From contig VGBM01000008.1 of NCBI GenBank assembly GCA_016870485.1, forward strand, positions 23,999-87,998: 64,000 nucleotides of DNA. The letters run 5' to 3'. This stretch comes from Actinomycetota bacterium (GTDB lineage: Bacteria > Actinomycetota > Thermoleophilia > Gaiellales > F1-60-MAGs149). Below the pieces are notes generated by a model that saw only the letters and a program-made list of their open reading frames with translations, did not search any database and was not told the DNA's origin. Below, piece by piece: positions 2,797-44,225 of the stretch; positions within the stretch are counted from its first letter, which is position 1, and each line of letters begins with the position of its first letter. The translations under genes were made by a program, and so were the position numbers.

Positions 2797-4710
2797 GTGA
2801 AGGTCCACCTCCCCGACGGCACCGAGCTCGAGCTCCCCGACGGCGCGACCGGACTCGACTGCGCGCGCGCGATCGGCGAGCGCCTCGCGAAGGCCACGGC
2901 TGCGGTCGAGGTCGACGGCGAGCTGCGCGACCTGCGCCTGCCCCTGCCCGACGGCGCGCACGTGCGCATCATCCGCGTCGGCGACCCCGAGGCCCTCGCC
3001 GTGCTGCGCCACTCGACGGCGCACGTCCTCGCTGAGGCCGCCCGCCACGTCTTCCCCGGCGTGAGGATCTCGATCGGTCCGGCGATCGACAACGGCTTCT
3101 ACTACGACTTCGACTTCCCCGAGCCGATCGGCGAGGCGGACCTGCAGCGGCTCGAGGACGAGATGCGCCGGATCCTCAAGACGCGCCACGCCTTCGAGCG
3201 CGGCACGGTGGAGCGCGACGCGATCCGCCAGCGCTTCGTCGACGAGGACGAGGCGTACAAGGTCGAGCTGATCGACGACCTGCCCGTCGACGAGCCCCTG
3301 ACGGTCTACACGCAGGACGACTTCACCGACCTCTGCCGCGGCCCGCACCTGCAGGACACGGGCCCGATCAAGGCCTTCACCCTGACGCACCTCGCGGGCG
3401 CCTACTGGCGCGGCGACGCGACGCGGCCGATGCTGACGCGGGTCTACGGCACCGCCTTCTTCACGCAGGAGGACCTCGACCAGCACCTGCGCAACATCGA
3501 GGAGGCGCTCAAGCGCGACCACCGCCGGCTCGGGCGCGAGCTGGACCTCTTCTCCTTCAACGACGCCTCGCCGGGCGCGCCCTTCTGGCACCCGAAGGGC
3601 ATGGTCGTCTGGAACACCCTCGTCGACATGTGGCGCGAGGAGAACGGGGCGCGCGGCTACCAGGAGGTGAAGACGCCGATCCTCTACGCGTCCGACCTCT
3701 GGAAGACCTCCGGCCACTGGGACAAGTTCCGGGACAACATGTACCTGCTCGAGATCGAGGAGCGCGCCTTCGGCATGAAGCCGATGAACTGCCCGGCGCA
3801 CTGCCTGATCTTCGGCAGCGAGCGCCGCTCCTACCGCGAGCTGCCGCTGCGCATGAACGAGGTCGGCCTCGTGCACCGCCACGAGCCCTCCGGCACGCTG
3901 CACGGGCTGATGCGGGTGCGCCACATCACGCAGGACGACGCGCACCTCTTCATCACGGTCGACCAGATCGAGGAGGAGGTGCAGGGGGTGCTCCGCTTCG
4001 CGCTCGACCTCTACGAGCTGTTCGCGATGGACTACCGGATCGAGCTCTCCACACGGCCCGCGGTGCGGGTCGGGGACGACGCGATCTGGGACAAGGCCGA
4101 GGAGGCCCTGCACCGCGTCCTGCAGGCCCGCGGGATCGAGTACCGGGTCAATGAGGGCGACGGCGCCTTCTACGGCCCGAAGATCGACCTGCACCTGACG
4201 GACTCGCTCGGCCGCTCCTGGCAGTGCGGCACGGTCCAGCTCGACTTCAACCTGCCGGAGCGCTTCGAGCTCGCCTACACGGGCGCGGACGACCGCGACC
4301 ACCGACCCGTGATGATCCACCGCGCGCTGCTCGGCAGCTTCGAGCGCTTCATCGGCATCCTGATCGAGCACTACGGCGGGGCGTTCCCGCTCTGGCTTGC
4401 GCCGGTGCAGGCCGTGATCCTGCCGATCTCGGACCGCCACCACGAGGCCGCTGAGCTCGCCTGCGCGACGCTGAAGGCGGCCGGGCTGCGCGCCCAGGTC
4501 GACGCCCGCGGCGAGTCGATCGGCAAGCGCATCGCGGAGGCCGAGACGCAGAAGGTTCCGGCGATGCTCGTGATCGGCGACCGCGAGGCGGAGGCGGGGG
4601 CGGCGGCGGTGCGCCGCCACGGCGGCCACGACCTCGGCACGCAGCCGCTCGCCCGCGTCGTGGAGGAGCTCGCGCAGGAGCGCGACGCCCGCGTCGTCCA
4701 CGGCGCGTAG
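2797..4710 (+). CDS. thrS: Threonine--tRNA ligase
   Basis: 637 aa with TGS domain, second additional domain (RHSTAHVLAEA), class II core (FGMKPMNCPAHCLIF, HRHEPSGTLHGLMRVR) and anticodon-binding domain. Confidence 0.97.
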   Translation: MKVHLPDGTELELPDGATGLDCARAIGERLAKATAAVEVDGELRDLRLPLPDGAHVRIIRVGDPEALAVLRHSTAHVLAEAARHVFPGVRISIGPAIDNGFYYDFDFPEPIGEADLQRLEDEMRRILKTRHAFERGTVERDAIRQRFVDEDEAYKVELIDDLPVDEPLTVYTQDDFTDLCRGPHLQDTGPIKAFTLTHLAGAYWRGDATRPMLTRVYGTAFFTQEDLDQHLRNIEEALKRDHRRLGRELDLFSFNDASPGAPFWHPKGMVVWNTLVDMWREENGARGYQEVKTPILYASDLWKTSGHWDKFRDNMYLLEIEERAFGMKPMNCPAHCLIFGSERRSYRELPLRMNEVGLVHRHEPSGTLHGLMRVRHITQDDAHLFITVDQIEEEVQGVLRFALDLYELFAMDYRIELSTRPAVRVGDDAIWDKAEEALHRVLQARGIEYRVNEGDGAFYGPKIDLHLTDSLGRSWQCGTVQLDFNLPERFELAYTGADDRDHRPVMIHRALLGSFERFIGILIEHYGGAFPLWLAPVQAVILPISDRHHEAAELACATLKAAGLRAQVDARGESIGKRIAEAETQKVPAMLVIGDREAEAGAAAVRRHGGHDLGTQPLARVVEELAQERDARVVHGA

Positions 4711-4882
4711 GCCGTCGCAGATGGTGCGAGACGCGGTGGAAACCGCGTACTGATGCGGGTGGAGCGCACGGGCGGGGCGTCCGTACCGTGCTACGATCGC
4801 CCGCGTCGGTCGGCCCCGGGCCTGCCGTCACCCACCCGATCAACGAACGGAGACCACCACCCTTGCGCACGGAGCACCAGCC

Positions 4883-5983
4883 TTGAGGCCACGCGGCGGA
4901 TTCGACCGCCCGCCGGACGAACCGCGCGTCCGCATCAACGAGGCCATTCGGGTACCGCAGGTGCGCCTGATCGGCGCAGACGGTGAGCAGATCGGGGTCA
5001 AGGACCGGGACGAGGCGCTGGAGTACGCCTGGAACCTGAACCTGGACCTCGTCGAGGTGGCCGCCGACGCTCGCCCGCCCGTCTGCCGGGTGATGGACTA
5101 CTCGAAGTACAAGTACGAGCAGGAGCAGAAGGCCAAGCTCGCCCGCAAGCACCAGAACGTCATCGTCATCAAGGAGATCAAGCTGCGCCCGAAGGTCGGC
5201 CAGCACGACTACGAGACGAAGCGCGGGCACGTGATCCGGTTCCTCAAGAAGCGCGACAAGGTCAAGGTCACGATCATGTTCCGCGGCCGCGAGATGACGC
5301 ACCCCGAGCGCGGCCGCGACCTCCTGCTGCGCCTCGCCGAGGACCTCAAGGAGCTCGCGGTCATCGAGTCGGAGCCGCTGCAGGACGGCCGCAACATGGT
5401 GATGATGTTGGCCCCCTCCAAGCAGCTGATGAAGGAGGACGGCAAGGCTGAGAGCGGAGAGGACGAGGATCGCCCCGTCAAGCCCGCGCCCACCGTCAAG
5501 CCCACCCCGACGCCCGTCGCCACGGAGACCCAGGCGCCCGAGCCCGCCGTGGTGGGGGTCGCCGAGGTCGTCGCCGAGGTTGAGGAGGCCGCACCGGCGG
5601 CCGCGGAGGCCGAGCCCGTGGAGGCGGTCGCCGAGATCGTGGTGGCGGAGACCGCTGCCCCGGTTGCGGACCCGAAGCCGGAGCCCGCCACGGCCCCGGC
5701 CGCCGCCAAGCCGGTGGCGAAGCCGAAGGCCACGGCGAAGCCGAAGGCGCCCGCCAAGCAGAAGGCCGCTGCGGCGGAGAAGCCCGCGGCGAAGGCCCCG
5801 GCCAAGCCGAAGGCGCCCGCCAGGCCCAAGGCGGCCGCGGCGGAGAAGCCCGCCGCGAAGGCCCCGGCCAAGCCCAAGCCGGCGGCCGCCGCGAAGGCGC
5901 CCGCCAAGCCGAAGACGACCACCACCCGCAAGACGACCACCGCCAGGAAGCCTGCTGCCGCGCCCGACGCCGACAACGGGTAG
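4883..5983 (+). CDS. infC: Translation initiation factor IF-3 with a long C-terminal low-complexity extension
   Basis: Residues ~17-180 are canonical IF3 (RINEAIRVPQVRLIGADGEQIGV...IKEIKLRPKVGQHDYETKRGHVIRFLKKRDKVKVTIMFRGRE). Residues 181-366 are an acidic then Lys/Ala/Pro-rich tail. The TTG start at 4883 is uncertain, because IF3 genes often use atypical start codons. Confidence 0.93.
   Translation: MRPRGGFDRPPDEPRVRINEAIRVPQVRLIGADGEQIGVKDRDEALEYAWNLNLDLVEVAADARPPVCRVMDYSKYKYEQEQKAKLARKHQNVIVIKEIKLRPKVGQHDYETKRGHVIRFLKKRDKVKVTIMFRGREMTHPERGRDLLLRLAEDLKELAVIESEPLQDGRNMVMMLAPSKQLMKEDGKAESGEDEDRPVKPAPTVKPTPTPVATETQAPEPAVVGVAEVVAEVEEAAPAAAEAEPVEAVAEIVVAETAAPVADPKPEPATAPAAAKPVAKPKATAKPKAPAKQKAAAAEKPAAKAPAKPKAPARPKAAAAEKPAAKAPAKPKPAAAAKAPAKPKTTTTRKTTTARKPAAAPDADNG
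5762..5880 (+). repeat. In-frame 66-nt tandem duplication inside the infC tail (KAAAAEKPAAKAPAKPK unit)
   Basis: aaggccgctgcggcggagaagcccgcggcgaaggccccggccaagcc at 5762 recurs nearly identically at 5828 (aaggcggccgcggcggagaagcccgccgcgaaggccccggccaagcc). The period is 66 nt. Confidence 0.85.
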
Positions 5984-7400: not shown

Positions 7401-8120
7401 CTAGCGCCGCTGCGCGATCACCACGAGGTCGCCCGTGCCGTCCTCGCGCACGGGCCCGCCGGCGAAGTCGCCCCAGGCGGTGATCACCTCGAAGCCGGCC
7501 TCCTCGACGAGCCGCAGCCAGTGCTCGGCGGGCACGGGGTGGAGGATGAGGGTCGTGGTGCGGCCGCGCATCTCGACCTCGATCCGCGTGGTGCCGTCGG
7601 CGCGGTGCCAGTCGGCCCGCTCCTTCGCGCCCGAGTCGCGGTGGTACCACTGGCCCTGCGTGGCGTCGATGTCCTCGGGCGTGGGCGAGAAGACGTCGAA
7701 GGCGAGGAAGCCGTGCTCCGCGAGCAGGTCGCGGGCGGCCCCGAAGGCGGCCAGGCGTGCGGCGTCGTCGGGCAGGTGCAGGAGGCTCCGGAAGGGGATC
7801 AGGACGCGGTCGTACGCACCCTCGACACCGGGCGCGAGCAGGTCGCCGGTGCGGACCTCGACGCGCTCGAGGACGCCGGCCTCCGCGGCGTTCAGGCGCA
7901 GGCGCTCGCGCATGGCGTCGGAGGGGTCGACGGCGATCACGTCGTAGCCGGCCTCGGCTAGCGGGATCGCGATGCGGCCCGTGCCGGCGGCCAGCTCGAC
8001 GATCGGCGCCTCGGACCCCTGCGCCATCCCGAGGTAGTGGGGGATGTCCTCGACGACCTCGAGGCACCACGCGTCGTAGATGTCGGCGATCGCCGCGTAC
8101 TCGTCGACGGGGTCCGCCAC
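7401..8120 (-). CDS. Class I SAM-dependent methyltransferase, substrate unknown
   Basis: GTG at 8120 in ORF 7401..8642. Motif I VELAAGTGRIAIPLAEAGYDVIAVDPSDAM. The start lies 2 nt after the hisIE stop, so it is probably co-transcribed with the his operon. Confidence 0.8.
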   Translation of the reverse strand: MADPVDEYAAIADIYDAWCLEVVEDIPHYLGMAQGSEAPIVELAAGTGRIAIPLAEAGYDVIAVDPSDAMRERLRLNAAEAGVLERVEVRTGDLLAPGVEGAYDRVLIPFRSLLHLPDDAARLAAFGAARDLLAEHGFLAFDVFSPTPEDIDATQGQWYHRDSGAKERADWHRADGTTRIEVEMRGRTTTLILHPVPAEHWLRLVEEAGFEVITAWGDFAGGPVREDGTGDLVVIAQRR

Positions 8121-8122
8121 GG

Positions 8123-8761
8123 CTAGCCCCGGAGCCAGCGCGGTGCCAGGCCCTCGCGCTCGGCGAGGACGTCGAGGACGCGCAGGGGGTCGGTGCCGTC
8201 GCGGGCGAGCAGCACCAGCAGGTGGAAGAGGACGTCGGCGGCCTCCTCGGCCTGGTGGTCGCTTCCGGGGGCGGCCTCGAGCACCTCCGCGGCCTCCTCG
8301 GCCACCTTGCCGGCGGCCACGTCGCGGTCGGCGGCGAGCAGGCGCGCCACGTAGGACGTCTCGGGGTCGACGCCGCGGCGGGCCGCGATCGTCCCGGCGA
8401 GGCGACTGAGCAGGGGGCCGGCGTCGTCGCCCCAGCAGGAACGGGTCCCGGTGTGGCAGGCGGGGCCGGCGGGCGAGACCAGCACGAGCAGCGCGTCCCG
8501 GTCGCAGTCGAGCCGGACCGACTCGACCTCGAGGACGTTGCCGCTCGTGGCGCCCTTCTCCCAGAGCTCGTGGCGCGAGCGCGACCAGAAGGTCGCCCGG
8601 CGCGTGGTGAGCGTCTGCGCGAGAGCGTCGGCGTTCATCCACGCCATCATCAGCACGGTGCCGTCGACGGCGTCCTGGCAGACCGCGGGGATCAGCCCGG
8701 CGTCGTCGTAGACCGGCTCGCCCGTGAGGGTCAGCGCATCGGCAGGCTCCTGGCTCGGCAT
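8123..8761 (-). CDS. hisIE: Bifunctional phosphoribosyl-AMP cyclohydrolase / phosphoribosyl-ATP pyrophosphatase
   Basis: ATG at 8761 in ORF 8123..9139. HisI part [26 protein letters not shown]...[28 protein letters not shown]. HisE part [25 protein letters not shown]...[14 protein letters not shown]. The start overlaps the hisF 3' end by about 31 nt. Confidence 0.92.
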
Positions 8762-9483
8762 GCGTCCTTCACCTCCTCCACCGTCGAGATCGCGTCGTGG
8801 AAGATGCTCGCAGCCAGGGCGGCGGAGACCCCGGCCTCCAGCACGTCCGCGATGTCCGCGGGGCCGCTGGCGCCGCCCGAGGCGATGATCGGCACGTCGA
8901 CGGCGTCGAGGAGGCGCGCGTAGAGGTCGAGCGCGTAGCCGGCCTGCGTCCCGTCCTGGTCCATGGCGGTCACGAGCAGCTCGCCCGCCCCGCGCTCCAC
9001 GGCCTCCACGGCCCACGCGACGGCGTCCCGGCCGGTCGGGCGGCGGCCGCCCGCGGCGACGGCCTCCCAGGCCCCGTCGGGGCCCCTGCGGGCGTCGATG
9101 GCGACCACGATGCACTGCGAGCCGTGGCGCTCGGCGCACTCGGCCACGAGACCGGGGCGGTCGAGGGCCGCCGAGTTGATCGACACCTTGTCGGCGCCGG
9201 CGCCGAGCAGGTCGCGCACGTGCGGCTCGTCGGAGACGCCGCCGCCGACGGTCAGCGGCACGTCGATCCGGGTGCCCGCGCCCTCGACCTGCGCGAGCAG
9301 CCCCTGCCAGGACTCGTCGCCCGCGGTGATGTTGAGCCAGCAGATCTCATCGGCACCCTGCTCGGCGTAGCGCAGGGCGGCGTCGACGGGCTCCCCGCAG
9401 TCGCGCAGGTTGACGAACTCGACGCCCTTGACGACGCGGCCGCCGGAGACGTCGAGGCAGGGGATGATGCGACGGCGCAGCAT
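8731..9483 (-). CDS. hisF: Imidazole glycerol phosphate synthase, cyclase subunit
   Basis: [33 protein letters not shown]...PLTVGGGV...[17 protein letters not shown] overlap with the hisH stop at 9483. Confidence 0.96.
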
Positions 9484-10088
9484 CAGGCGGGCTCCCAGGC
9501 GAGGAAACGCGAGAGGAGCTGCCGGCCGGCCTCGGCCGAGCGCTCCGGGTGGAACTGCGCCCCGGCCACGGAGCCGCGCACGACCATCGAGGCGATGGTC
9601 GCGTCGTCGATGCTCGTGATCGCGAGGGCGGACGGGATGTTGGCGGTGACCGCGTAGGAGTGCGCGAAGTACGCCACGGCGGGCAGGTCCCGGGTCAGCG
9701 GGTGGTCCTGCAGGGGCTCGACATCGTTCCAGCCGAGGTGGGGCAGGCGTGCGGCGCCGCGGATCCGGTGCACGCTGCCGTGCAGGAGCCCGAGGCCCGC
9801 GCAGTCGTCCTCCTCGGAGCGGTCGAAGAGGACCTGCAGCCCGACGCAGACGCCGAGCAGCGGCACGTGGCGTCGCGCGGCGTCGCGGAGGGCGTCGGCG
9901 AGCCCACGGGACTCGAGCGCGGCCATGGCGGCCCCGGCCGCGCCCTGGCCGGCCACCATCAGGCGCTCGGCGCCCGCCACGGCGTCCGGATCGGCCGAGA
10001 CCGCCACCCGCGCGCCGCAGCGCTCGAGCGCGGCGGTCAGCGAGCGCACGTTGCCGCCCCCGTAGTCGACGATCAGGACCGAGGCCAC
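9483..10088 (-). CDS. hisH: Imidazole glycerol phosphate synthase, glutamine amidotransferase subunit
   Basis: VLIVDYGGGNVRSL...LLGVCVGLQVLF...GAQFHPERS (Cys-His-Glu triad context). Confidence 0.95.
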   Translation of the reverse strand: MASVLIVDYGGGNVRSLTAALERCGARVAVSADPDAVAGAERLMVAGQGAAGAAMAALESRGLADALRDAARRHVPLLGVCVGLQVLFDRSEEDDCAGLGLLHGSVHRIRGAARLPHLGWNDVEPLQDHPLTRDLPAVAYFAHSYAVTANIPSALAITSIDDATIASMVVRGSVAGAQFHPERSAEAGRQLLSRFLAWEPA

Positions 10089-11794
10089 TACAGGGAGCCC
10101 TTGGTCGAGGCGATCGCGCCGGCCCGGCGCGGATCGATCGACCAGGCCGCGCGCAGCGCGCGGGCGAGCGCCTTGAAGGCCGCCTCGGCGACGTGGTGGT
10201 CGTCCTCGCCGGACGCCTCCACGTGGATGGTGGCGCGGGCATTGACCGCGATGCAGTCGATCAGGTGCGCGACGAGGCTGGTCGGCAGCTCGCCGATCCG
10301 GTCGGCGGTGAAGGCGATCCGCACGGTGCTGGAGCCACGGCCCGAGAAGTCGACGACGGCCCGGCCGAGCGCCTCGTCGAGCGGTGCGGAGGCGTCGCCG
10401 AAGCGTTGGATGCCGACGCGGTCGCCGAGCGCCGCGTCGATGGCCTGGCCGAGCACGATGCCGCAGTCCTCGACCGTGTGGTGCGGGTCGATGTGCGTGT
10501 CACCCGTGCAGGCGAGGTCGAGGTCCATCAGGGAGTGGTGCCCGAGCGCGGTCAGCATGTGGTCGAGGAAGCCGATGCCCGTGGCCACGAGCGCCTGCCC
10601 GCCGCCGTCGAGGGTGGCCTGCAGCCGGATCGCCGTCTCCTTCGTGGTGCGCTCGATCAGCGCGCCGCGGCCGAACGTCGCCGCGCCGACGGCCGGATCG
10701 TGCGGCGCGGGGGCGGGGCGGCCCAGCAGCTCGGCGAGGCCGGCCAGCAGCCGGTCGTTGTCGGCCGGGACCGACACGCAGGCGCGGATGCAGTCGGCGA
10801 GCAGGGGCTCGTGCCCGAACGTGCGCACCACGAGCCCGCGCGCCGCGAGCTGCGCGAAGGCGTCATCGCCCTGCCAGGGCGTGCGGGCGAGCACGAAGTT
10901 GGCGGCTTCGCCCACGACCTCGAGGCCGAGCTCGCGCACGCCGGCGGCGAGCCGCTCGCGCTCCGCCCGGTAGGCCGCCGTGTCGCGCCGCATGACGTCG
11001 ACGTGGCGCAGGGCCAGCTCGGCGCCGAGCGCGGAGCCGGTGGAGAGGGAGCCGGGCGGGCGCAGCGCGTCGATCGAGCCCGCGATCCCGGGATTGGCGA
11101 TCGCGTAGCCGGCGCGCAGGGCGCCGAGGCCCCAGCCCTTCGAGAAGGTGCGGACGATTACGAGGTTGGGGCAGTCGTCGAGGAGTCCGCTGTGGTCCTG
11201 CGCACCCCCGAACTCGAGGTAGGCCTGGTCGACGGCCACGACGCCGGGGCAGCGCGCGGCGATGGCCCGGATCCGCTCGGCGGGGACCTCCTCCCCCGTC
11301 GGGTTGTTCGGCGAGCAGAGCCAGACGAGGCGCGCCCCCTCGGCGCGGCGCTCGACCTCGTCGAGGTCGAGGCGCAGCCCGCCGCCGGGCAGCGGGTCGA
11401 CGAGGTCGACCTCGGCGCCGGCCATGCGGGCGCCCGTGGCGTGCAGCTGGTAGGTGGGGCGCGGAACGACGGCGCGATCGCCGCGCCCGAGCGCGATCCA
11501 GGCGGTCAGGAGGATGGCCTCGTCGCCGCCCGCGGTCGGCACGACGTGGTCGGGCGTCAGCCCGACGTAAGCCGCGATCGCGCGCTTGAGGTCGGCGTAG
11601 TCGGCCTCGGGGTAGGAGGAGACCGACTGCGCGGCGATCGTGCGCGCGATGCCGGGCCACCACGAGGGGTTCAGGGGCAGCGTGTTGAGGTCGAAGCGGG
11701 CGACGTCGCCCGCGGGCACGCCCTCCTGCCAGCGGTACGGCGACGGCTTCGCCAGCTCCGGGCGGATCCAGGGGATGTCGAGGGGCTCGCTCAC
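10088..11794 (-). CDS. hisC-hisB: Fusion protein: histidinol-phosphate aminotransferase (N) + imidazoleglycerol-phosphate dehydratase (C)
   Basis: One uninterrupted 568-aa frame. Residues 1 to ~365 are HisC-like (SYPEADYADLKRAIAAY, CSPNNPTGEEV, VRTFSKGWGLGALRAGY). Residues ~375-568 are IGPD (ERTTKETAIRLQATLDGGG, GIGFLDHMLTALGHHS, DPHHTVEDCGIVLGQA, HHVAEAAFKALARAL). I saw no in-frame start or stop in the PAPAPHDPAVGAATFGRG linker. Confidence 0.9.
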   Translation of the reverse strand: MSEPLDIPWIRPELAKPSPYRWQEGVPAGDVARFDLNTLPLNPSWWPGIARTIAAQSVSSYPEADYADLKRAIAAYVGLTPDHVVPTAGGDEAILLTAWIALGRGDRAVVPRPTYQLHATGARMAGAEVDLVDPLPGGGLRLDLDEVERRAEGARLVWLCSPNNPTGEEVPAERIRAIAARCPGVVAVDQAYLEFGGAQDHSGLLDDCPNLVIVRTFSKGWGLGALRAGYAIANPGIAGSIDALRPPGSLSTGSALGAELALRHVDVMRRDTAAYRAERERLAAGVRELGLEVVGEAANFVLARTPWQGDDAFAQLAARGLVVRTFGHEPLLADCIRACVSVPADNDRLLAGLAELLGRPAPAPHDPAVGAATFGRGALIERTTKETAIRLQATLDGGGQALVATGIGFLDHMLTALGHHSLMDLDLACTGDTHIDPHHTVEDCGIVLGQAIDAALGDRVGIQRFGDASAPLDEALGRAVVDFSGRGSSTVRIAFTADRIGELPTSLVAHLIDCIAVNARATIHVEASGEDDHHVAEAAFKALARALRAAWSIDPRRAGAIASTKGSL

Positions 11795-12645
11795 GGGATC
11801 AGGTGCTCGATGGGGACGACGAGCAGTCCGCTCGCGCCCGCCTCCTTGAGAGGATGCAACAGCCGGGGCAGATCCGCGACATCGACGACCGCGTGCACCG
11901 CGTGCATGTCGGCCCGGGCCAGCGGCAGCACCGTCGGGGCGTCGAGCCCGGGCAGGAGCGCCAGGATGCGGTCCAGCGCCACGTCCGGGGCGTTCAGCAT
12001 CAGGTAGCGCTTGGGCCGGGCGGCCAGCACCGACTCGACGGCGGTCCGCAGCACGGCGACGCGGTCGTCGTCGGCCACGCGGTCGGCGGCGATCAGGACC
12101 GCCTCGGAGCGCAGCACCGTGTCGATGATGCGCAGGCCGTTCTGGCGCAGCGTCTCGCCGGTGGAGACGAGGTCGCAGATCGCGTCGGCGGCGCCGATCG
12201 TGGGGGCCAGCTCGATCGACCCCGACAGGGTCGTCACGTCGGCCTCGACGCCGTGCTCCGCCAGGTGGGACCGCAGGACGTGGGGGTGGGAGGTGGCGAT
12301 CCGGCGGCCCGCCAGGTCGCCCACGGTCGCGATCCCCGCCTCGACGGGAGCGGCGAGGGCGAGCGTGCAGGCCCCGAAGCCGAGCGCCACGAGCACGCCG
12401 AGGCCGGCAGCGCCGTGCTCGGCGAGCTGGTTGCCTCCGACGACGCCGACGTCCGCCGCGCCGTCGCGCAGCAGGGTGGGGATGTCGTCCGTGCGCGCGT
12501 AGAGGAGCTCAACCCCCTGACCCGCGACCGGCACGAGCAGCCGCCGGTCGTCGCCGGGGATGGGGATCCCGGCGTCGGCGAGCAGGCTGCGCGTCGGGTC
12601 GGCGAGGCGCCCCTTGGAGGGCACCGCGATGCGCAGGGCGCTCAT
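11791..12645 (-). CDS. hisG: ATP phosphoribosyltransferase, long form
   Basis: ATG at 12645 in ORF 11791..12705. MSALRIAVPSKGRL...DLVSTGETLRQNGL, plus a C-terminal regulatory domain (KRYLMLNAP...). ATGA overlap with the upstream regulator gene and GTGA overlap with the hisC-hisB start. Confidence 0.94.
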   Translation of the reverse strand: MSALRIAVPSKGRLADPTRSLLADAGIPIPGDDRRLLVPVAGQGVELLYARTDDIPTLLRDGAADVGVVGGNQLAEHGAAGLGVLVALGFGACTLALAAPVEAGIATVGDLAGRRIATSHPHVLRSHLAEHGVEADVTTLSGSIELAPTIGAADAICDLVSTGETLRQNGLRIIDTVLRSEAVLIAADRVADDDRVAVLRTAVESVLAARPKRYLMLNAPDVALDRILALLPGLDAPTVLPLARADMHAVHAVVDVADLPRLLHPLKEAGASGLLVVPIEHLIP

Positions 12646-12947
12646 CGGGGCCGGCCCAGCCGGTCCAACACGGCCCGATAGCCGCCTTCGCCGTGGCGCA
12701 GCCACTGGGCGACGCGGGTGACGGTGGCGGTCGAGGCGCCGAGGCGCTTGGCGACCTCGGCGTAGGGCAGGCCGGCGTCGACGAGGCGCGCCGCCTCCAG
12801 CCGCTGGGCCAGCGCCCCGAGCTCGGTGAAGGAGCAGACGTCGCGCAGGAACGCGAGCATCGTCTCGCGGTCGTCGATCTCGATAAGCGCGTCGGCGAGC
12901 TGCTCGACGGCCGGGGTCCTCCAGGTGGTCTCCGCAGATTGTTTCAT
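12642..12947 (-). CDS. TrpR-like YerC/YecD family DNA-binding protein (candidate his regulator)
   Basis: 101 aa: ...LADALIEIDDRETMLAFLRDVCSFTELGALAQRLEAARLVDAGLPYAEVAKRLGASTATVTRVAQWLRHGEGGY. This is the typical YerC/YecD (Trp repressor-like) layout. It is the first gene of the his operon. Confidence 0.8.
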   Translation of the reverse strand: MKQSAETTWRTPAVEQLADALIEIDDRETMLAFLRDVCSFTELGALAQRLEAARLVDAGLPYAEVAKRLGASTATVTRVAQWLRHGEGGYRAVLDRLGRPR

Positions 12948-12948
12948 C

Positions 12949-12966
12949 GTGTTAGCATGCTAACAC
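12949..12966. promoter_or_regulatory. 18-bp perfect palindrome GTGTTAGCATGCTAACAC, candidate shared operator with overlapping divergent -10 elements
   Basis: It fills the 20-bp gap between the regulator start codon (12945-12947, minus) and the hisA GTG (12968). The dyad centre is equidistant (10.5 bp) from both start codons. TAGCAT (TANNNT-like -10) reads outward on both strands. Confidence 0.65.
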
Positions 12967-12967
12967 A

Positions 12968-13726
12968 GTGAACGGCCCCCGTGACGACTTCCTGCTCTAC
13001 CCGGCGATCGACCTGGTCGCCGGCCGGGCGGTGCGGCTTCTGCACGGGCAGTTCGACCAGATCCTGACGAACGAGCTGGACGACGCTCTCGAGCGGGCGC
13101 GCCGCGTCTGGGAGGCCGGCTCGCGCGCCCTGCATGTGATCGACCTCGATGCGGCGCGCAGTGGGGAGCCCGCCGAGCCGAACCGCGGCCTCGTCCGCGC
13201 GATCGCCGCCGCGAAGCCCCCGACGGGGCTCCTGCAGGTCGGCGGGGGCCTGCGCAGCGCCGCGGCCGTGGACCGCCTGATCGCCGATGGCGTCGACCGC
13301 GTCCTGATCGGCACCATGGCCTTCCGGGAGCCCGAGCTCCTCGACGCCCTGATCGCGCACCACGGCGCGGCGATCGCCGTCGCCATCGACAGCCGCGGGG
13401 GCAGCGTGCGCATCGCCGGCTGGCAGGAGGACGCGGGCGTCCCCGTGGCGGAGGCGGCGCGCGAGCTCGTCGACCGCGGCGTACGGCACCTCCTCGTCAC
13501 CGGGATCGACCGCGACGGCTCCCTCGCCGGTCCCGACCTCGCGCTCCTGGAGGGCGTCCTGGCGGCCGTGGCGGGGGGCCGGGCCGGGGTGATCGCCGCC
13601 GGGGGCGTGACCACGGCGGGGGACGTGCGGAACGCCCGCGCCCTCGGCTGTGCCGGCGCCGTCGTCGGCCGGGCGCTCCTGGACGATCCGGACCTGCTCG
13701 CCGAGCTGCTCGCCGCGGCCGCCTAA
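12968..13726 (+). CDS. hisA: ProFAR isomerase HisA (a PriA-type bifunctional HisA/TrpF cannot be excluded)
   Basis: LLYPAIDLVAGRAVRLLHGQFDQ...LQVGGGLRS...LLVTGIDRDGSLAGPD...IAAGGVTTAGDV. Confidence 0.92.
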   Translation: MNGPRDDFLLYPAIDLVAGRAVRLLHGQFDQILTNELDDALERARRVWEAGSRALHVIDLDAARSGEPAEPNRGLVRAIAAAKPPTGLLQVGGGLRSAAAVDRLIADGVDRVLIGTMAFREPELLDALIAHHGAAIAVAIDSRGGSVRIAGWQEDAGVPVAEAARELVDRGVRHLLVTGIDRDGSLAGPDLALLEGVLAAVAGGRAGVIAAGGVTTAGDVRNARALGCAGAVVGRALLDDPDLLAELLAAAA

Positions 13727-14044
13727 CAGCGCCGATCCGACCACCGCCTCGAAGGGTGATTGAGGGGTACGCATGAACCTCAGGCTCAGATTTCTGCGGT
13801 TTCACTTGAGCGTTTTCGGCCGCCTGGGCGTGATCGAGACCGTTCCGTTACGCACAGCTTCTCGCGACGAAACACGATAAATAAGCCAAAGATGGGGAAT
13901 ACCCTCAGCCTTCGGTTGAGGCATTTACGAAAACGCAACCGGCTCGAGCTTGCGGGTAGCATGGGATTGCCCGTACAGTCTCGATCTCTTTAGAGGGTTC
14001 TGCCCTCAGTCAGAGACCGAGACTCCTAACCGTCGATCTGAGAA
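13727..14044 (+). promoter_or_regulatory. AT-richer structured 5' leader upstream of the NlpC/P60 gene (candidate riboswitch or cis-regulatory RNA)
   Basis: Visibly lower GC than the flanks (GATAAATAAGCCAAAGAT, CATTTACGAAAAC). Hairpins at 13903-13921 (CCUCAGCC/GGUUGAGG) and 13952-13974 (GCGGG/CCCGU). A three-tier hairpin at 13978-14023 (GUCUCG/CGAGAC, UCUCU/AGAGA, GAGGG/CCCUC) ends 21 nt before the ATG. Confidence 0.5.
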
Positions 14045-15115
14045 ATGACTTTCCAGCGTACCACCCGCACCGTCGCCCTCGTCCTGGTCGTCCTCGTCGC
14101 GTTCTCGGGGGTCGCCGACGCCAAGCGCAAGAAAAAGCGCAAGCCCGCCCGCGCCGTCGCCACGCTCCCCGCCGAGGGGCGCAACCTCCACCAGAGCGCG
14201 ATCTCGGTCGTGCTCGCCGCCGGCGTGATGCCGGGCGCGACCGCCGAGACGATGCGCCCGGATGAGCCGCTCGACGGGCCGGCGCTGCAGGCGTTCGTGC
14301 AGGCCGCCTTCCCCAAGACCGGCAAGCGCGTGCGCCAGATCGCGGCGGGGCAGACCGTGACCATGGGCGACGTCAACGCGATCTTCGTCGAGGCCGCCGG
14401 GATGGGCCCGACCGCGGTGCGCGCGGAGGAGCTGATCGCGAACGCCGGCTACGTGGTGCGCCCGGGCCTCGGCACCGAGATCGTCGCCCGCCTGATGCGG
14501 CTGCGGACGAACCTCGATCAGGCCGAGGACGCCAAGGAGCACGCCTGGTACGAGCAGGCCTCCCGCGGCGACGCGATCTGGTCGACGGCGGTCGTCCTGA
14601 AGTGGGGTGGCTGGGAGAAGCAGTCCGCGATCGACACGGTCGAGCTGCTCGCGCAGGTCCCGCAGACGGCAGGCCCTCAGCACGACGCGATCCAGCGGGC
14701 CTTCGACTTCATCGGGATGCCCTACATCTGGGGCGGCACCTCCGAGCAGCCGCAGATCCTGTTCGGGGCGAACACCGCGGGCGGGTTCGACTGCTCCGGC
14801 TTCACATGGCGCATCCTTGCGCTCGACCCGACGGCGCCGAAGCAGGCCGCGAAGAACTTCGGCGGCCGCACCACGTTCGAGATGGCCCGCACGGCCAAGC
14901 CCGAGCAGCGACTGCCGCGCGAGGCGATCCAGCCCGCCGACATCCTCCTGTTCGGCCCGGGCGGCCTGACCGGGGCCTCCGACGGCATCAACCACACCGG
15001 GATGGCGATCTCGCCGCAGCTGTTCATCCACTCCTCGGGGCAGGGCGTCGCCCTGGCCCGCTGGGACACGGGCTACTACCTCGACCGGCTCGCCTTCGGC
15101 AAGCGGATCCTCTAG
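14045..15115 (+). CDS. Secreted NlpC/P60 family peptidoglycan hydrolase
   Basis: Signal peptide MTFQRTTRTVALVLVVLVAFSGVADA. C-terminal NlpC/P60 domain PYIWGGTSE...GFDCSGFTWRI...INHTGMAISPQLFIHS (Cys and His catalytic residues). Confidence 0.9.
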   Translation: MTFQRTTRTVALVLVVLVAFSGVADAKRKKKRKPARAVATLPAEGRNLHQSAISVVLAAGVMPGATAETMRPDEPLDGPALQAFVQAAFPKTGKRVRQIAAGQTVTMGDVNAIFVEAAGMGPTAVRAEELIANAGYVVRPGLGTEIVARLMRLRTNLDQAEDAKEHAWYEQASRGDAIWSTAVVLKWGGWEKQSAIDTVELLAQVPQTAGPQHDAIQRAFDFIGMPYIWGGTSEQPQILFGANTAGGFDCSGFTWRILALDPTAPKQAAKNFGGRTTFEMARTAKPEQRLPREAIQPADILLFGPGGLTGASDGINHTGMAISPQLFIHSSGQGVALARWDTGYYLDRLAFGKRIL

Positions 15116-15139
15116 GCGCGGCCGGCGCCCGCGGGGCCG

Positions 15140-15628
15140 CTAGGCCCCGTGGCAGCGCTTGTACTTGCGCCCGGACCCACAGGGGCAGGGGTCGTTGCGC
15201 CCGACCTTCGCGCCGCCGAAGCGGGCGTCGAGGCTCGGCAGATCGTCCACCGCGGTCTCGATCGGCCCGGCGTCGGTGGCGGCGCGGACCCGCTCGAGCT
15301 CCAGCACCTCGTCGTGGTCAAGGGTCAACACCGTCTCGACGGGATCGGGGTGCGCGACGGGCCGCGGCGGGTCGCCCGCGGCGAGGCCGAGGCCCTCGAG
15401 CAGGGCGACGGCCTCTTCCGCGTCGAGCTCGCTCGGGACCGCCGGCACGTCGAGGCGCGACGGGGCCACGAGGCGGAAGCGCTCCCACGCTGCGAGGTCG
15501 CCGGGGCCCTGCGGGCCGACCAGGCCCTCGAGCGCGCGCCGGCGCCGGCCCGCGGGGCCGTCGAGGGCCCGCAGGACGTCCGCGAGGCGGGGCGGGAGCC
15601 AGTGCGTCCAGCCGAGATCCAAGCGCAC
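15140..15628 (-). CDS. SEC-C metal-binding motif protein
   Basis: The C-terminus [20 protein letters not shown] is the SEC-C zinc motif. The rest is unassigned. Confidence 0.75.
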
Positions 15629-15675
15629 AGCCTAGCGGCGTCGGGTAGGCTGGCCCCGACCGAAGGAGGGGTGCC

Positions 15676-16587
15676 GTGGCGGACGCCGATCTCGACCAGA
15701 TCCTCGACGACGTGGAGGAGCTCAGGGAGCGCACGCGGGTCGTGGATCTGGCCGGCGGGCTGACGAACCACAACTACCGCGTCGACGCCCCCGGCGGCGC
15801 CTACGTGGTGCGGATCTCCGACCCGGACACGGGCCTCCTCGCGATCGACCGCGACAACGAGCACGTCAACACGGTCGCCGCCGCCGAGGCCGGCGTCGGG
15901 GCCCGCGTCGTCGCCTATCGGCCCGAGCATACGATGCTGGTGCTCGAGTTCCTTGAGGGCATGGAGACGATGTCGAAGGAGGCGATGCAGCGCGGCGACC
16001 GCCTCGCGCAGGCGGCGGACGCCATGCGCCGGCTGCACGCCGGGCCGGCCTTCCGCGACCGCTTCGACATGTTCCGGATCCAGGCGGGGTACCGGGAGGT
16101 CTGCGGCGCGCGTGGCTTCGCGCTGCCCGACCGCTACGACGACTTCGCCGCGCAGGTGCGGCGGCTCGAGGAGGCGATGCGCGTCTGGCCCGAGCCGCTC
16201 GTGCCGTGCAACAACGACCTGCTCGCGGAGAACTTCCTCTGGGACGGGTCCGGCTTCCGGCTGATCGACTACGAGTACTCGGGCATGAACGAGGCCTCGT
16301 TCGAGATCGGCAACGTCTGGAGCGAGTCCGACCTGACCCTCGACCAGCTCGAGGAGCTCGTCGGCGCCTACTGGGGCGAGGCGACGCCGGCCAGGGTCGC
16401 GCGCGCCCGCATGTGGGGGCTGATGTCGAAGCACGGTTGGACCCTCTGGGGCGTCATCCAGCACAACCTCTCCACCATCGACTTCGACTTCTGGGAGTGG
16501 CTGATGGACAAGCACGAGCGCGCCATCGCCGAGTTCGACGGCCCCGCCTTCGACGGCCTGCTCGCCGACATCGCCGAGGATGGCTGA
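15676..16587 (+). CDS. Phosphotransferase, APH / choline-ethanolamine kinase family
   Basis: GGLTNHNYRV nucleotide-loop region and Brenner/catalytic motif CNNDLLAENFLW...RLIDYEYSGMN. Confidence 0.82.
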   Translation: MADADLDQILDDVEELRERTRVVDLAGGLTNHNYRVDAPGGAYVVRISDPDTGLLAIDRDNEHVNTVAAAEAGVGARVVAYRPEHTMLVLEFLEGMETMSKEAMQRGDRLAQAADAMRRLHAGPAFRDRFDMFRIQAGYREVCGARGFALPDRYDDFAAQVRRLEEAMRVWPEPLVPCNNDLLAENFLWDGSGFRLIDYEYSGMNEASFEIGNVWSESDLTLDQLEELVGAYWGEATPARVARARMWGLMSKHGWTLWGVIQHNLSTIDFDFWEWLMDKHERAIAEFDGPAFDGLLADIAEDG

Positions 16588-26876: not shown

Positions 26877-26908
26877 CGCTCCGTCGGGGCGCTGGTTAGC
26901 ATGGCGCC

Positions 26909-27541
26909 ATGCATCCGAGACTGCACGTCAGCGAGCACCCGCTCGTCCAGCACAAGATCGCGCTCCTGCGCGACGCCGAGACCTCGACGCGGGACTTCCG
27001 GGCGCTGTCGAGCGAGATCGCGGGCGTGCTCGCCTACGAGGCGACGCGCGACCTGCAGCTCGAGGACGTCGAGGTCACCACGCCGATCAAGGCCACGGTG
27101 GGCCGCAAGGTGACGGGCAAGAAGGTGGGGGTGGTGCCGATCCTGCGCGCCGGCGTCGGCATGCTCGACGGCGTGCTCGCGATGATCCCGGTCGCCCGCG
27201 TCGGCTTCCTCGGGGTCTACCGCGACGAGGAGACGCTGCAGCCGGTCTCGTACTACGAGAAGCTGCCGCGGGAGCTCGGCGAGCGCACGATGCTGATCCT
27301 CGACCCGATGCTGGCCACGGGCGGCTCGGCCTCGTTCGCGGCCACGGTCTGCAAGGAGCGCGGGGCGCGCTCGGTCAAGCTCCTGTCCATCATCGCGGCG
27401 CCCGAGGGCGTCGAGCGGATGGCCGCCGACCACCCCGACGTGGAGGTGCACGTCGCCTCGCTCGACGAGTGCCTCAACGAGCACGGCTACATCGTGCCGG
27501 GGCTCGGCGACGCCGGCGACCGGCTCTGGGGCACGCGGTAG
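26909..27541 (+). CDS. upp: Uracil phosphoribosyltransferase
   Basis: HPLVQHKIALLRD...VPILRAGVGMLDG...LDPMLATGGSA...YIVPGLGDAGDRLWGT. Confidence 0.96.
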   Translation: MHPRLHVSEHPLVQHKIALLRDAETSTRDFRALSSEIAGVLAYEATRDLQLEDVEVTTPIKATVGRKVTGKKVGVVPILRAGVGMLDGVLAMIPVARVGFLGVYRDEETLQPVSYYEKLPRELGERTMLILDPMLATGGSASFAATVCKERGARSVKLLSIIAAPEGVERMAADHPDVEVHVASLDECLNEHGYIVPGLGDAGDRLWGTR

Positions 27542-43375: not shown

Positions 43376-44225
43376 CGCCGCGCCTGTGCATGGCGCGCAG
43401 CGCCGTGATCTCCTCGGCATCCGGGCCCTGCCCGTCGTGGCCGGGCGTCTCCAGCAGCATCGGCAGGTCCCGCAGCTTCGGATGCGACAGGGCCACGGCG
43501 AGGCCCGCGCCCATCTCGCCCGCGCCGACGTTGGCGTGGCGGTCGCGGTTCGAGCCGCACGCGGCCTGCGCGTCGTTGACGTGCAGGCAGCGCAGGCGCT
43601 CGATGCCGACGCGCTGATCGAGCTCGCGCACGAGCCGGTCGAGCGCGTCGGGATCGGTCATGTCCACGCCCGACACCCACGCGTGGCAGGTGTCGATGCA
43701 GAGCCCGAGGCGGGGGTCGTCGACGGCGTCGATGATGGCGGCCAGCTCGACCGGGTCGCGGCCGATCGTGCCGCCCGCGCCGGCCGAGTTCTCGAGCAGG
43801 AGCCACGGGCCGTCGAGGCGCTTGAGCGCAGCCTTCAGCTCGCGCGCGATCTGGGGGAGGGTGGCGTCGAGCCCGCGGCCCTTGTGCGACCCGACGTGCA
43901 GCACGACGCCGTCGGCGGCGATCGCGTTGGCCACGTCGATGGTGGTGCGCAGTGCGGTGCGGCTCTTCTCGAGCAGGTCGGGATCGTCGGTCGCGAGGTT
44001 GATGAAGTAGATCGCGTGGCAGACCAGGTAGGCGACCTCGCCCGACTCGCGCGCCGCGCGCAGGGCCGCGAGGTCCTCGGGCCGGTGGTTGGTCGGCTTC
44101 CACGTACGCGCGCTCTGGATGAAGACCTGGGCCGCGTCCGCGCCGATGGCCCGCGTGCGGCCCGGCACGTTGCCGAGGCCGCCCGCGGCGGAGATGTGCG
44201 CGCCGGCGATCACCCGTCGCAGCAT
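43338..44225 (-). CDS. nfo: Deoxyribonuclease IV (endonuclease IV)
   Basis: ATG at 44225 in ORF 43338..44318. IAGAHISAAGG...VCHAIYFINLA...VLHVGSH...LLLENSAGAG...CIDTCHAW...LHVNDA. Confidence 0.92.
   Translation of the reverse strand: MLRRVIAGAHISAAGGLGNVPGRTRAIGADAAQVFIQSARTWKPTNHRPEDLAALRAARESGEVAYLVCHAIYFINLATDDPDLLEKSRTALRTTIDVANAIAADGVVLHVGSHKGRGLDATLPQIARELKAALKRLDGPWLLLENSAGAGGTIGRDPVELAAIIDAVDDPRLGLCIDTCHAWVSGVDMTDPDALDRLVRELDQRVGIERLRCLHVNDAQAACGSNRDRHANVGAGEMGAGLAVALSHPKLRDLPMLLETPGHDGQGPDAEEITALRAMHRRGVSARAARARRAR

Follow-up and report, generated by a model that had tools for sequence, protein, structure and literature searches.

A predicted HisR operator between divergent hisA and hisR-led histidine biosynthesis genes of Gaiellales, and its conservation in related bacteria

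Here we report the analysis of two divergent histidine biosynthesis units, and of the short segment that separates them, in a 64-kb stretch of DNA (74% G+C) from a Gaiellales member of the Actinomycetota, hereafter the window; the locus lies on tgtttCATcGTGTTAGCATGCTAACACaGTGaac. On the minus strand, hisR (12642..12947) encodes a yerC-type repressor of the TrpR family, 101 aa long, and is the first cistron of a his operon. On the plus strand, hisA (12968..13726) encodes the 252-aa ProFAR isomerase and reads away from hisR from a GTG start codon at 12968-12970. The hisR ATG occupies 12947-12945 of the minus strand (CAT at 12945-12947 on the plus strand), leaving a gap of exactly 20 nt (12948-12967) between the two start codons. 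The whole of this gap is filled by the predicted HisR-type operator CGTGTTAGCATGCTAACACA (12948..12967), which contains a perfect 18-bp palindrome, GTGTTAGCATGCTAACAC, at 12949-12966, flanked by C12948 and A12967. Its dyad falls between 12957 and 12958, 10.5 nt from each start codon. An earlier reading of the same DNA (the original prediction) was accurate in all of its sequence details, namely the 101-aa gene, the 20-bp gap, the palindrome with its dyad at 10.5, the TAGCAT hexamers on both strands and the ATGA overlap of hisR with the next gene.

Upstream extension of both the hisR and the hisA open reading frames (ORFs) is blocked by TAG within the palindrome, and therefore neither gene can start further upstream. 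Later start choices would cost conserved residues, W9/R10 in HisR and the PAIDL strand in HisA. The hisR ATG is conserved among all close relatives, and the hisA start keeps a fixed position with a codon that switches between GTG and ATG, as expected of a genuine start. Independent public gene calls on metagenome contigs with an identical protein also place the same two genes 20 nt apart. HisA matches the His_biosynth family (E=1.5e-53) and scores 188 bits against TIGR00007, under the 229-bit equivalog cut-off; against the hisA-trpF model it reaches 111 bits only, with a cut-off of 306.

By sequence comparison, the 101-aa protein is the HisR orthologue of the YerC/YecD family, in agreement with the family assignment of the original prediction. 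Its score is 75.3 bits for TIGR02531 (yecD_yerC; cut-off 42.2) and 71.3 bits for the Pfam Trp_repressor family (PF01371; cut-off 27, E=7e-20). We rejected its identification as TrpR proper, as the TrpR equivalog TIGR01321 failed (27.2 bits vs the cut-off of 67.25) and the neighbouring genes belong to his rather than trp/aro pathways. The closest solved structures are 3G1C from Eubacterium eligens, 3KOR and 3FRW, with E=2e-17 to 5e-15 over about 90 of the 101 residues. The best of them, 3G1C, matches residues 10-99 with E=2.3e-17 and counts as a HisR structure in Ashniev et al. 2022 (PMC9413887). In the recognition helix, STATVTRV, the Ala/Thr/Arg DNA contacts (equivalents of Ala80/Thr81/Arg84 in TrpR) are preserved, and Tyr (Y62) replaces Arg69 of TrpR; the stretch Y62...GASTATVTRV aligns with GASTATISRV of 3G1C. 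Among 26 relatives, no variation is seen at S72, T73, T75-A80 and Y62, and hardly any at A74.

To score candidate sites, we used a 20-bp palindromic position weight matrix obtained iteratively from 81 hisR-upstream regions. The operator scores 34.3 bits, compared with 2.8 bits for the best non-overlapping position of the window and a maximum of 9.6 bits in mononucleotide shuffles, and the only other matrix signal in the window is a self-overlap of the site shifted by 8 bp (12940-12959, 19.6 bits). In cGTGTTAGCATGCTAACACa the site retains TTA-N6-TAA, which forms the core of the consensus published for HisR (cacTTTAnnnnnnTAAAgtg), and it resembles published Coriobacteriia sites such as cgctttatcgtgctaaagtg; a sister clade has a perfect TTTA-N6-TAAA arrangement (cgTTTTAGCATGCTAAAAtg).

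To assess conservation of the site, an alignment of the regulator was run against GTDB genomes, one for each species, and 479 relatives were confirmed; we examined the best 80 loci, which belong to Thermoleophilia/Gaiellales, Acidimicrobiales and a few metagenome-assembled genomes (MAGs) of Chloroflexota. A matching site lies just upstream of hisR in all 80 loci (consensus CATGTTAGCATGCTAACATG, 25 bits), hisG is found directly downstream of hisR in 77 of them and hisC in the other three, and a divergent hisA was detected in 74. The site stays with hisR at loci where hisA sits 200-800 nt off (L062, L068, L078), and it is present upstream of hisR in the Chloroflexia loci L043, L066 and L074, where no divergent hisA is detectable. 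Therefore, the site follows hisR. A phylogenetic footprint of the spacer, proposed along with the original prediction, covered 14 species genomes of the window's clade, several metagenome contigs and more distant loci, and the palindrome was nearly invariant in it. The segment CA[CT]-[TC]GTG[TC]TA[GAC]CATGCTAACACG-ATG is unchanged or nearly so in 19 aligned sequences, while the flanking codons diverge; the more distant loci that keep it encode HisR proteins about 55% and HisA proteins about 40% identical. Conserved beyond the needs of a TANNNT hexamer are the core positions C8/G11 and the outer GTG/CAC. The idea that the palindrome is a regulator site, put forward in the original prediction, thus appears largely right: with the published core kept and the site conserved among relatives, we regard it as a predicted, conserved HisR-type operator.

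The same 20 bp also contain candidate promoters. TAGCAT reads outward on both strands, at 12953-12958 (plus) and 12962-12957 (minus), each time after TGT and 9 nt before a start codon. The candidate extended -10 element TGT-TAGCAT for hisA (12950..12958, plus strand) has a predicted transcription start site at about 12965-12968, which would give a leader of 0-3 nt; its counterpart for the hisR operon (12957..12965, minus strand) has a predicted start at about 12950-12947. The two candidate hexamers overlap by 2 bp (TAGCATGCTA), and both strands are free of further TANNNT hexamers for about 900 nt. Neither start codon is preceded by a Shine-Dalgarno motif, and neither a sigma-70 -35/-10 pair nor a terminator was found in 12500-13400. 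High-G+C Actinobacteria have been described as placing a TANNNT hexamer near the start codon (PMC3160421); in leaderless promoters of this type it is expected about 6-8 nt before the ATG or GTG, with no Shine-Dalgarno sequence. The two strands of the window together contain only 70 TANNNT hexamers, and about 22 of these lie 5-9 nt (mode 7) before the ATG or GTG of long ORFs with high G+C at third codon positions, compared with a chance estimate of about 0.15 such hexamer-start pairs, assuming roughly 55 gene starts. Examples of these pairs (hexamer/start) are 1823/1836, 2784/2797, 18370/18357, 25614/25626, 29713/29700, 48492/48479 and 59146/59159, and another divergent pair of leaderless type is located at 44213(-)/44254(+).

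This signature suggests that both TGT-TAGCAT elements are probably the -10 boxes of near-leaderless transcripts; on the hisR side, ACGATG after the hexamer is conserved in two clades. The outer-arm hexamer was rejected as a -10 element here: in the window's clade it has the form TAACAC and abuts the start codon, from which its end is 1 nt away, so that the crossed inner hexamers are the only candidates left. The outer arms of Gaiellaceae (TGCTAACAT) have TAACAT in place of TAACAC and are found 6-8 nt before both starts. At two further loci, L090 and L099, a Shine-Dalgarno sequence directly follows the palindrome. RNA-based regulation of the his genes was also considered and rejected, as no Rfam family (T-box, His leader) matched at E<=1 in 8000-16000 and just 20 nt separate the start codons.

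Based on these data, we consider it likely that HisR binds the operator with histidine as a co-repressor and represses both divergent units. When histidine is abundant, a histidine-bound HisR dimer would occupy the 20-bp operator at 12948-12967, which holds the two opposed extended -10 elements with their 2-bp overlap. These promoters would drive near-leaderless transcripts, leftward for hisR-hisG-hisC~B-hisH-hisF-hisIE and rightward for hisA, and bound HisR would sterically bar RNA polymerase from both promoters together. When histidine falls, HisR would leave the DNA, and polymerase could then engage in either orientation, the two being mutually exclusive. Since hisR is the first, translationally coupled cistron of the operon, negative autoregulation is predicted as well. 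The original prediction had one dimer occluding both promoters and both translation starts: a single site does appear to serve both units, but the block of translation starts would not be a separate effect, as it matters only because transcription and translation starts nearly coincide. In a more far-reaching version, to which we give somewhat less than even credence, the 26 bp made up of start codon, palindrome and start codon would be a complete bidirectional control unit, in which the operator doubles as the two crossed -10 promoters and contains the transcription and translation starts of both near-leaderless genes, and in which HisR occupancy and polymerase competition would set the expression of eight enzyme activities of the pathway and of the repressor itself.

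Several observations weigh against this interpretation or limit it. The length of the palindrome had to be rejected as evidence, because G+C-rich palindromes of 18-20 bp arise by chance in this DNA: the window has 4 perfect palindromes of at least 18 bp where 1.5 are expected, and most first-order Markov simulations reach 18 bp. For an A+T-rich 18-bp palindrome, with five or more A:T pairs in each arm, the expectation is only 0.0023 per window. The significance of the site is thus, in our sequence-based assessment, a matter of cross-genome conservation, not of palindrome length. Position 4 of the half-site is G (GTTA) where the published consensus has T (TTTA). No second operator copy was found in the window by exact pattern with up to 3 mismatches, by the 12-bp core with 2 mismatches or by matrix scan, nor in the 3-kb flanks on either side of the sites of relatives, so that there is no support at the regulon level. 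The original prediction's reading of TAGCAT as a -10 element with leaders of about 3 nt fits the window-wide leaderless signature, and its estimate is reasonable; the gap of 9 nt between hexamer and start, which implies a 0-3-nt leader, is at the long end of the window range, with its mode of 7. Finally, the promoter and operator functions overlap, and the promoter alone could account for part of the conservation.

Among the alternatives, the one that survives best, though we hold it unlikely, is that HisR binds the palindrome but responds to a ligand other than histidine, such as a pathway intermediate, or acts with a different regulatory sign. The position of the gene directly upstream of hisG, or in three loci of hisC, speaks for a role in the histidine pathway, a site laid over -10 elements and start codons can hardly activate, and the residues of helix 2 and the helix-turn-helix that are common to the E. 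eligens HisR structure (D36, C38, E42, R49, Y62 and STAT.TR) are kept. Something nevertheless remains in its favour, since the effector has been tested for one Firmicute protein only, paralogues with tyrosine/tyramine or hut specificity have been described, and 38 of the 90 aligned positions are shared by HisR and its PDB relative (a hand count from the printed alignment).

Slightly less probable still is a palindrome that serves as a symmetric bidirectional promoter only, with HisR acting elsewhere or not at this locus. Both TGT-TAGCAT hexamers do lie inside the palindrome and are the sole TANNNT in the vicinity, and bidirectional promoters based on -10 symmetry are common in bacteria (PMC12825309). 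However, bases irrelevant to TANNNT are conserved too, and the motif accompanies hisR in clades that need other -10 elements, namely the TAACAT arms of Gaiellaceae and a TACCAT outside the palindrome in the TTTTAGCATGCTAAAA clade. It also matches the independently derived HisR consensus and the Coriobacteriia sites, and it persists upstream of hisR at the three Chloroflexia loci with no detected divergent gene. The least probable alternative, in which the true promoters lie within the opposite coding regions and the palindrome is a transcribed hairpin or roadblock in long overlapping leaders, could appeal to the little room in the 20-nt gap and to a hexamer-start gap longer than the window norm, but it finds no TANNNT within about 900 nt upstream, no Shine-Dalgarno motif and no Rfam match, relatives carry single-arm changes (L004 G->A, L009 G->C, L006/L018 T->C) that are uncompensated and give no sign of an RNA-pairing constraint, and the Shine-Dalgarno sequences after the palindrome in L090/L099 are as expected if transcription starts within it.

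In favour of the interpretation that we prefer, repression of both units by HisR through a shared operator, start codons lie close to the operator in relatives as well. In the TTTTAGCATGCTAAAA clade, the sole possible hisA start is an ATG at the palindrome centre (19 of 19 loci); upstream of it on its strand stands TGATACCAT or TGnTAGCAT, at a distance of 6 nt. For the sister clade with the operator CGTTTTAGCATGCTAAAATG (L014-L017, L022-L025, L027-L032, L041, L044 and L045, with spacers at about positions 2920-2990 of the loci), the only canonical in-frame start of hisA is the ATG within the GCATGC operator centre, with the same sequences 6 nt before it. On the hisR side of this clade, the distance from dyad to ATG (+18.5) exceeds that of the window's clade by 8 bp, and removing AATGGTAT from the spacer restores the hisR-side sequence of the window from the TTAGCA core onward. 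Comparison of the two arrangements suggests that the start codons slid relative to the operator, with hisR at +10.5 vs +18.5, an 8-bp step, and hisA at -10.5 vs a central ATG at +0.5.

The operator itself is composed of self-complementary 8-bp units, TGnTAnCA. In a matrix scan of 114 loci, every secondary hit in actinobacterial loci was displaced from the main site by +/-8 or +/-16 bp. Acidimicrobiales operators (L038, L047, L058, L070) have three or four phased units, and L073 has hits at 2911/2919/2927; by analogy, these arrays suggest binding of multiple HisR dimers. Tandem TrpR dimers were reportedly described by Lawson and Carey in 1993, and the phased extra units of the relatives recall the 8-bp spacing.

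The original prediction had also suggested a search for further copies of the site, for example upstream of other histidine genes; there are none in the window, and none turned up at other genes in metagenomes. A metagenome scan with the exact 18-mer returned 30 contigs, about 15 of which represent hisA/hisR intergenic regions, and no additional regulon member was identified among the 30 matches. The others comprise 12 low-G+C contigs, three matches within ORFs of high-G+C contigs, and two mid-G+C contigs, L092 and L095, which show no his genes. The low-G+C contigs (0.37-0.47; L082, L083, L087-L089, L091, L096, L097, L100, L104, L107 and L109) belong for the most part to a single metagenome (MDSQ01...); long ORFs are few in those that were inspected, and L091, L097 and L100 hold more near-copies of the 18-mer within about 100 bp. 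These copies look like an unrelated repeat family, possibly eukaryotic. Locus L018 (CAMDVX010000050.1), titled Bifidobacterium breve isolate LH-05nov19-144, has the Gaiellales-type arrangement hisA<->hisR-hisG-hisC~B together with the operator and is probably a mislabelled lake MAG. In the window, GGTTAGCATGG at 26895-26911, upstream of a uracil phosphoribosyltransferase gene (ATG at 26909), equals one operator half-site. It was rejected as a HisR site, as its full-site score is 2.8 bits and it resembles an ordinary leaderless -10 element (TAGCAT plus 6 nt).

Downstream of the regulator, the operon has the order hisR-hisG-hisC~B-hisH-hisF-hisIE, all on the minus strand, with very tight junctions of -4, -4, -1 and -1 nt, then a 31-nt overlap. 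The hisR stop TGA (12644-12642) overlaps the ATG of hisG (12645-12643) as ATGA. The hisG gene (11791..12645) encodes the long form with a C-terminal regulatory domain (HisG and HisG_C; 189 bits against TIGR00070); feedback inhibition through this domain would be a second control, at the enzyme level. The start of the fused hisC~hisB ORF (10088..11794, 568 aa) overlaps the hisG stop, and its product combines an Aminotran_1_2 domain (residues 43-350) with an IGPD domain (405-547). It is followed by hisH (9483..10088), the glutamine amidotransferase subunit with a GATase domain, which overlaps each neighbour by 1 nt, and by hisF (8731..9483), the cyclase subunit (His_biosynth, E=2e-67), with a start overlapping the hisH stop (TGATG). 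The last recognisable his cistron is hisIE (8123..8761), which encodes the PRA-CH and PRA-PH activities (PF01502, E=4e-34; PF01503, E=5e-13). Its ATG (8761) is 31 nt within the 3' end of hisF (8731-8761), an unusually long overlap for an operon otherwise coupled at 1-4 nt.

The hisC~hisB fusion joins an aminotransferase and IGP dehydratase, the enzymes of consecutive steps. In many relatives within the Gaiellales, tblastn matches it as a single unbroken segment, and public contigs also carry a gene call for the 568-aa product; hisC is not listed among the fusion-forming his genes in Fani et al. 2007 (PMC1963479). The hisD gene was not found anywhere in the window by tblastn. The operon of the window's clade (window, L001-L018) lacks it, and 38 more distant relatives (L019, L026, L033 at 4115-5083, and 35 others) have it between hisG and hisC.

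The description of YerC as the histidine regulator HisR in the original prediction proved correct: Ashniev et al. 2022 (BMC Genomics 23:558, PMC9413887) described YerC orthologues as HisR, with regulons in 395 Firmicutes and 97 other genomes. The published sites are 20-bp palindromes with the consensus given above, upstream of his genes and of hisR, and HisR from Ruminococcus gnavus binds its site only with histidine, as measured by fluorescence polarisation (PMC9413887). The known regulon covers Firmicutes, Coriobacteriia, some Proteobacteria and Synergistetes; in its 22 actinobacterial genomes (Coriobacteriales/Eggerthellales) hisR is never clustered with his genes, and hisR-led his operons have already been reported in other phyla (PMC9413887). 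Thermoleophilia/Gaiellales and Acidimicrobiia are absent from that paper and its supplements, and a full-text literature search found no other paper on HisR in Actinobacteria. The actinobacterial novelty claimed in the original prediction is therefore to be narrowed, as HisR already had a place in 22 genomes of Coriobacteriia type, while the lineage, the divergent hisA and the compaction are new.

The predicted sites would extend the HisR regulon to Thermoleophilia and Acidimicrobiia, large and mostly uncultured classes, and to some Chloroflexota, lineages with broad conservation of both the operator and the hisA<->hisR-hisG arrangement. For annotation of those genomes, a YerC/YecD protein may be called HisR and the his genes predicted to be repressed by histidine. 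The locus reveals no new mechanism. It would be an unusually small, symmetric, repressor-controlled bidirectional promoter for near-leaderless genes and could serve as a regulation model; how bidirectional promoters are regulated is called an open question in recent E. coli work (PMC12825309).

Comparison with characterized systems places the locus closest to the known HisR regulon, with which it shares the protein family (TIGR02531/PF01371), a 20-bp palindrome with TA steps 8 bp apart and the same targets. It differs in its lineage-specific consensus, where the GCATGC centre is conserved and half-site position 4 is G, and in having one site that is shared with divergent hisA and coincides with both putative -10 boxes. 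The E. coli repressor TrpR belongs to the same fold family and has the same Ala/Thr/Arg recognition-helix contacts, together with the autoregulation and co-repressor mechanism that are predicted here; its operators are likewise palindromic over 20 bp, with key TA-containing units 8 bp apart, and overlap the promoter. In contrast, the tryptophan-contacting residues are not conserved in HisR, and the operator sequence and the pathway differ. The promoter region PacrA/acrR, with the auto-repressor AcrR, is a bidirectional promoter in which -10 elements are shared or overlap (Warman et al. 2021; 2026, PMC12825309). Like the promoter predicted in the hisA/hisR spacer, it is a short pseudo-symmetric divergent promoter with a repressor encoded one way and exclusive polymerase orientations. 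The predicted hisA/hisR counterpart differs in hexamers that overlap by 2 bp only, in transcripts that would be near-leaderless and in a repressor site that would be the promoter itself; its predicted start separation of about 15-19 bp does not demonstrably belong to the common 18-bp class. Thus, the kind of system is known, and what is new is its lineages, the conserved divergent hisA and the placement of the operator, both putative promoters and both starts within about 26 bp.

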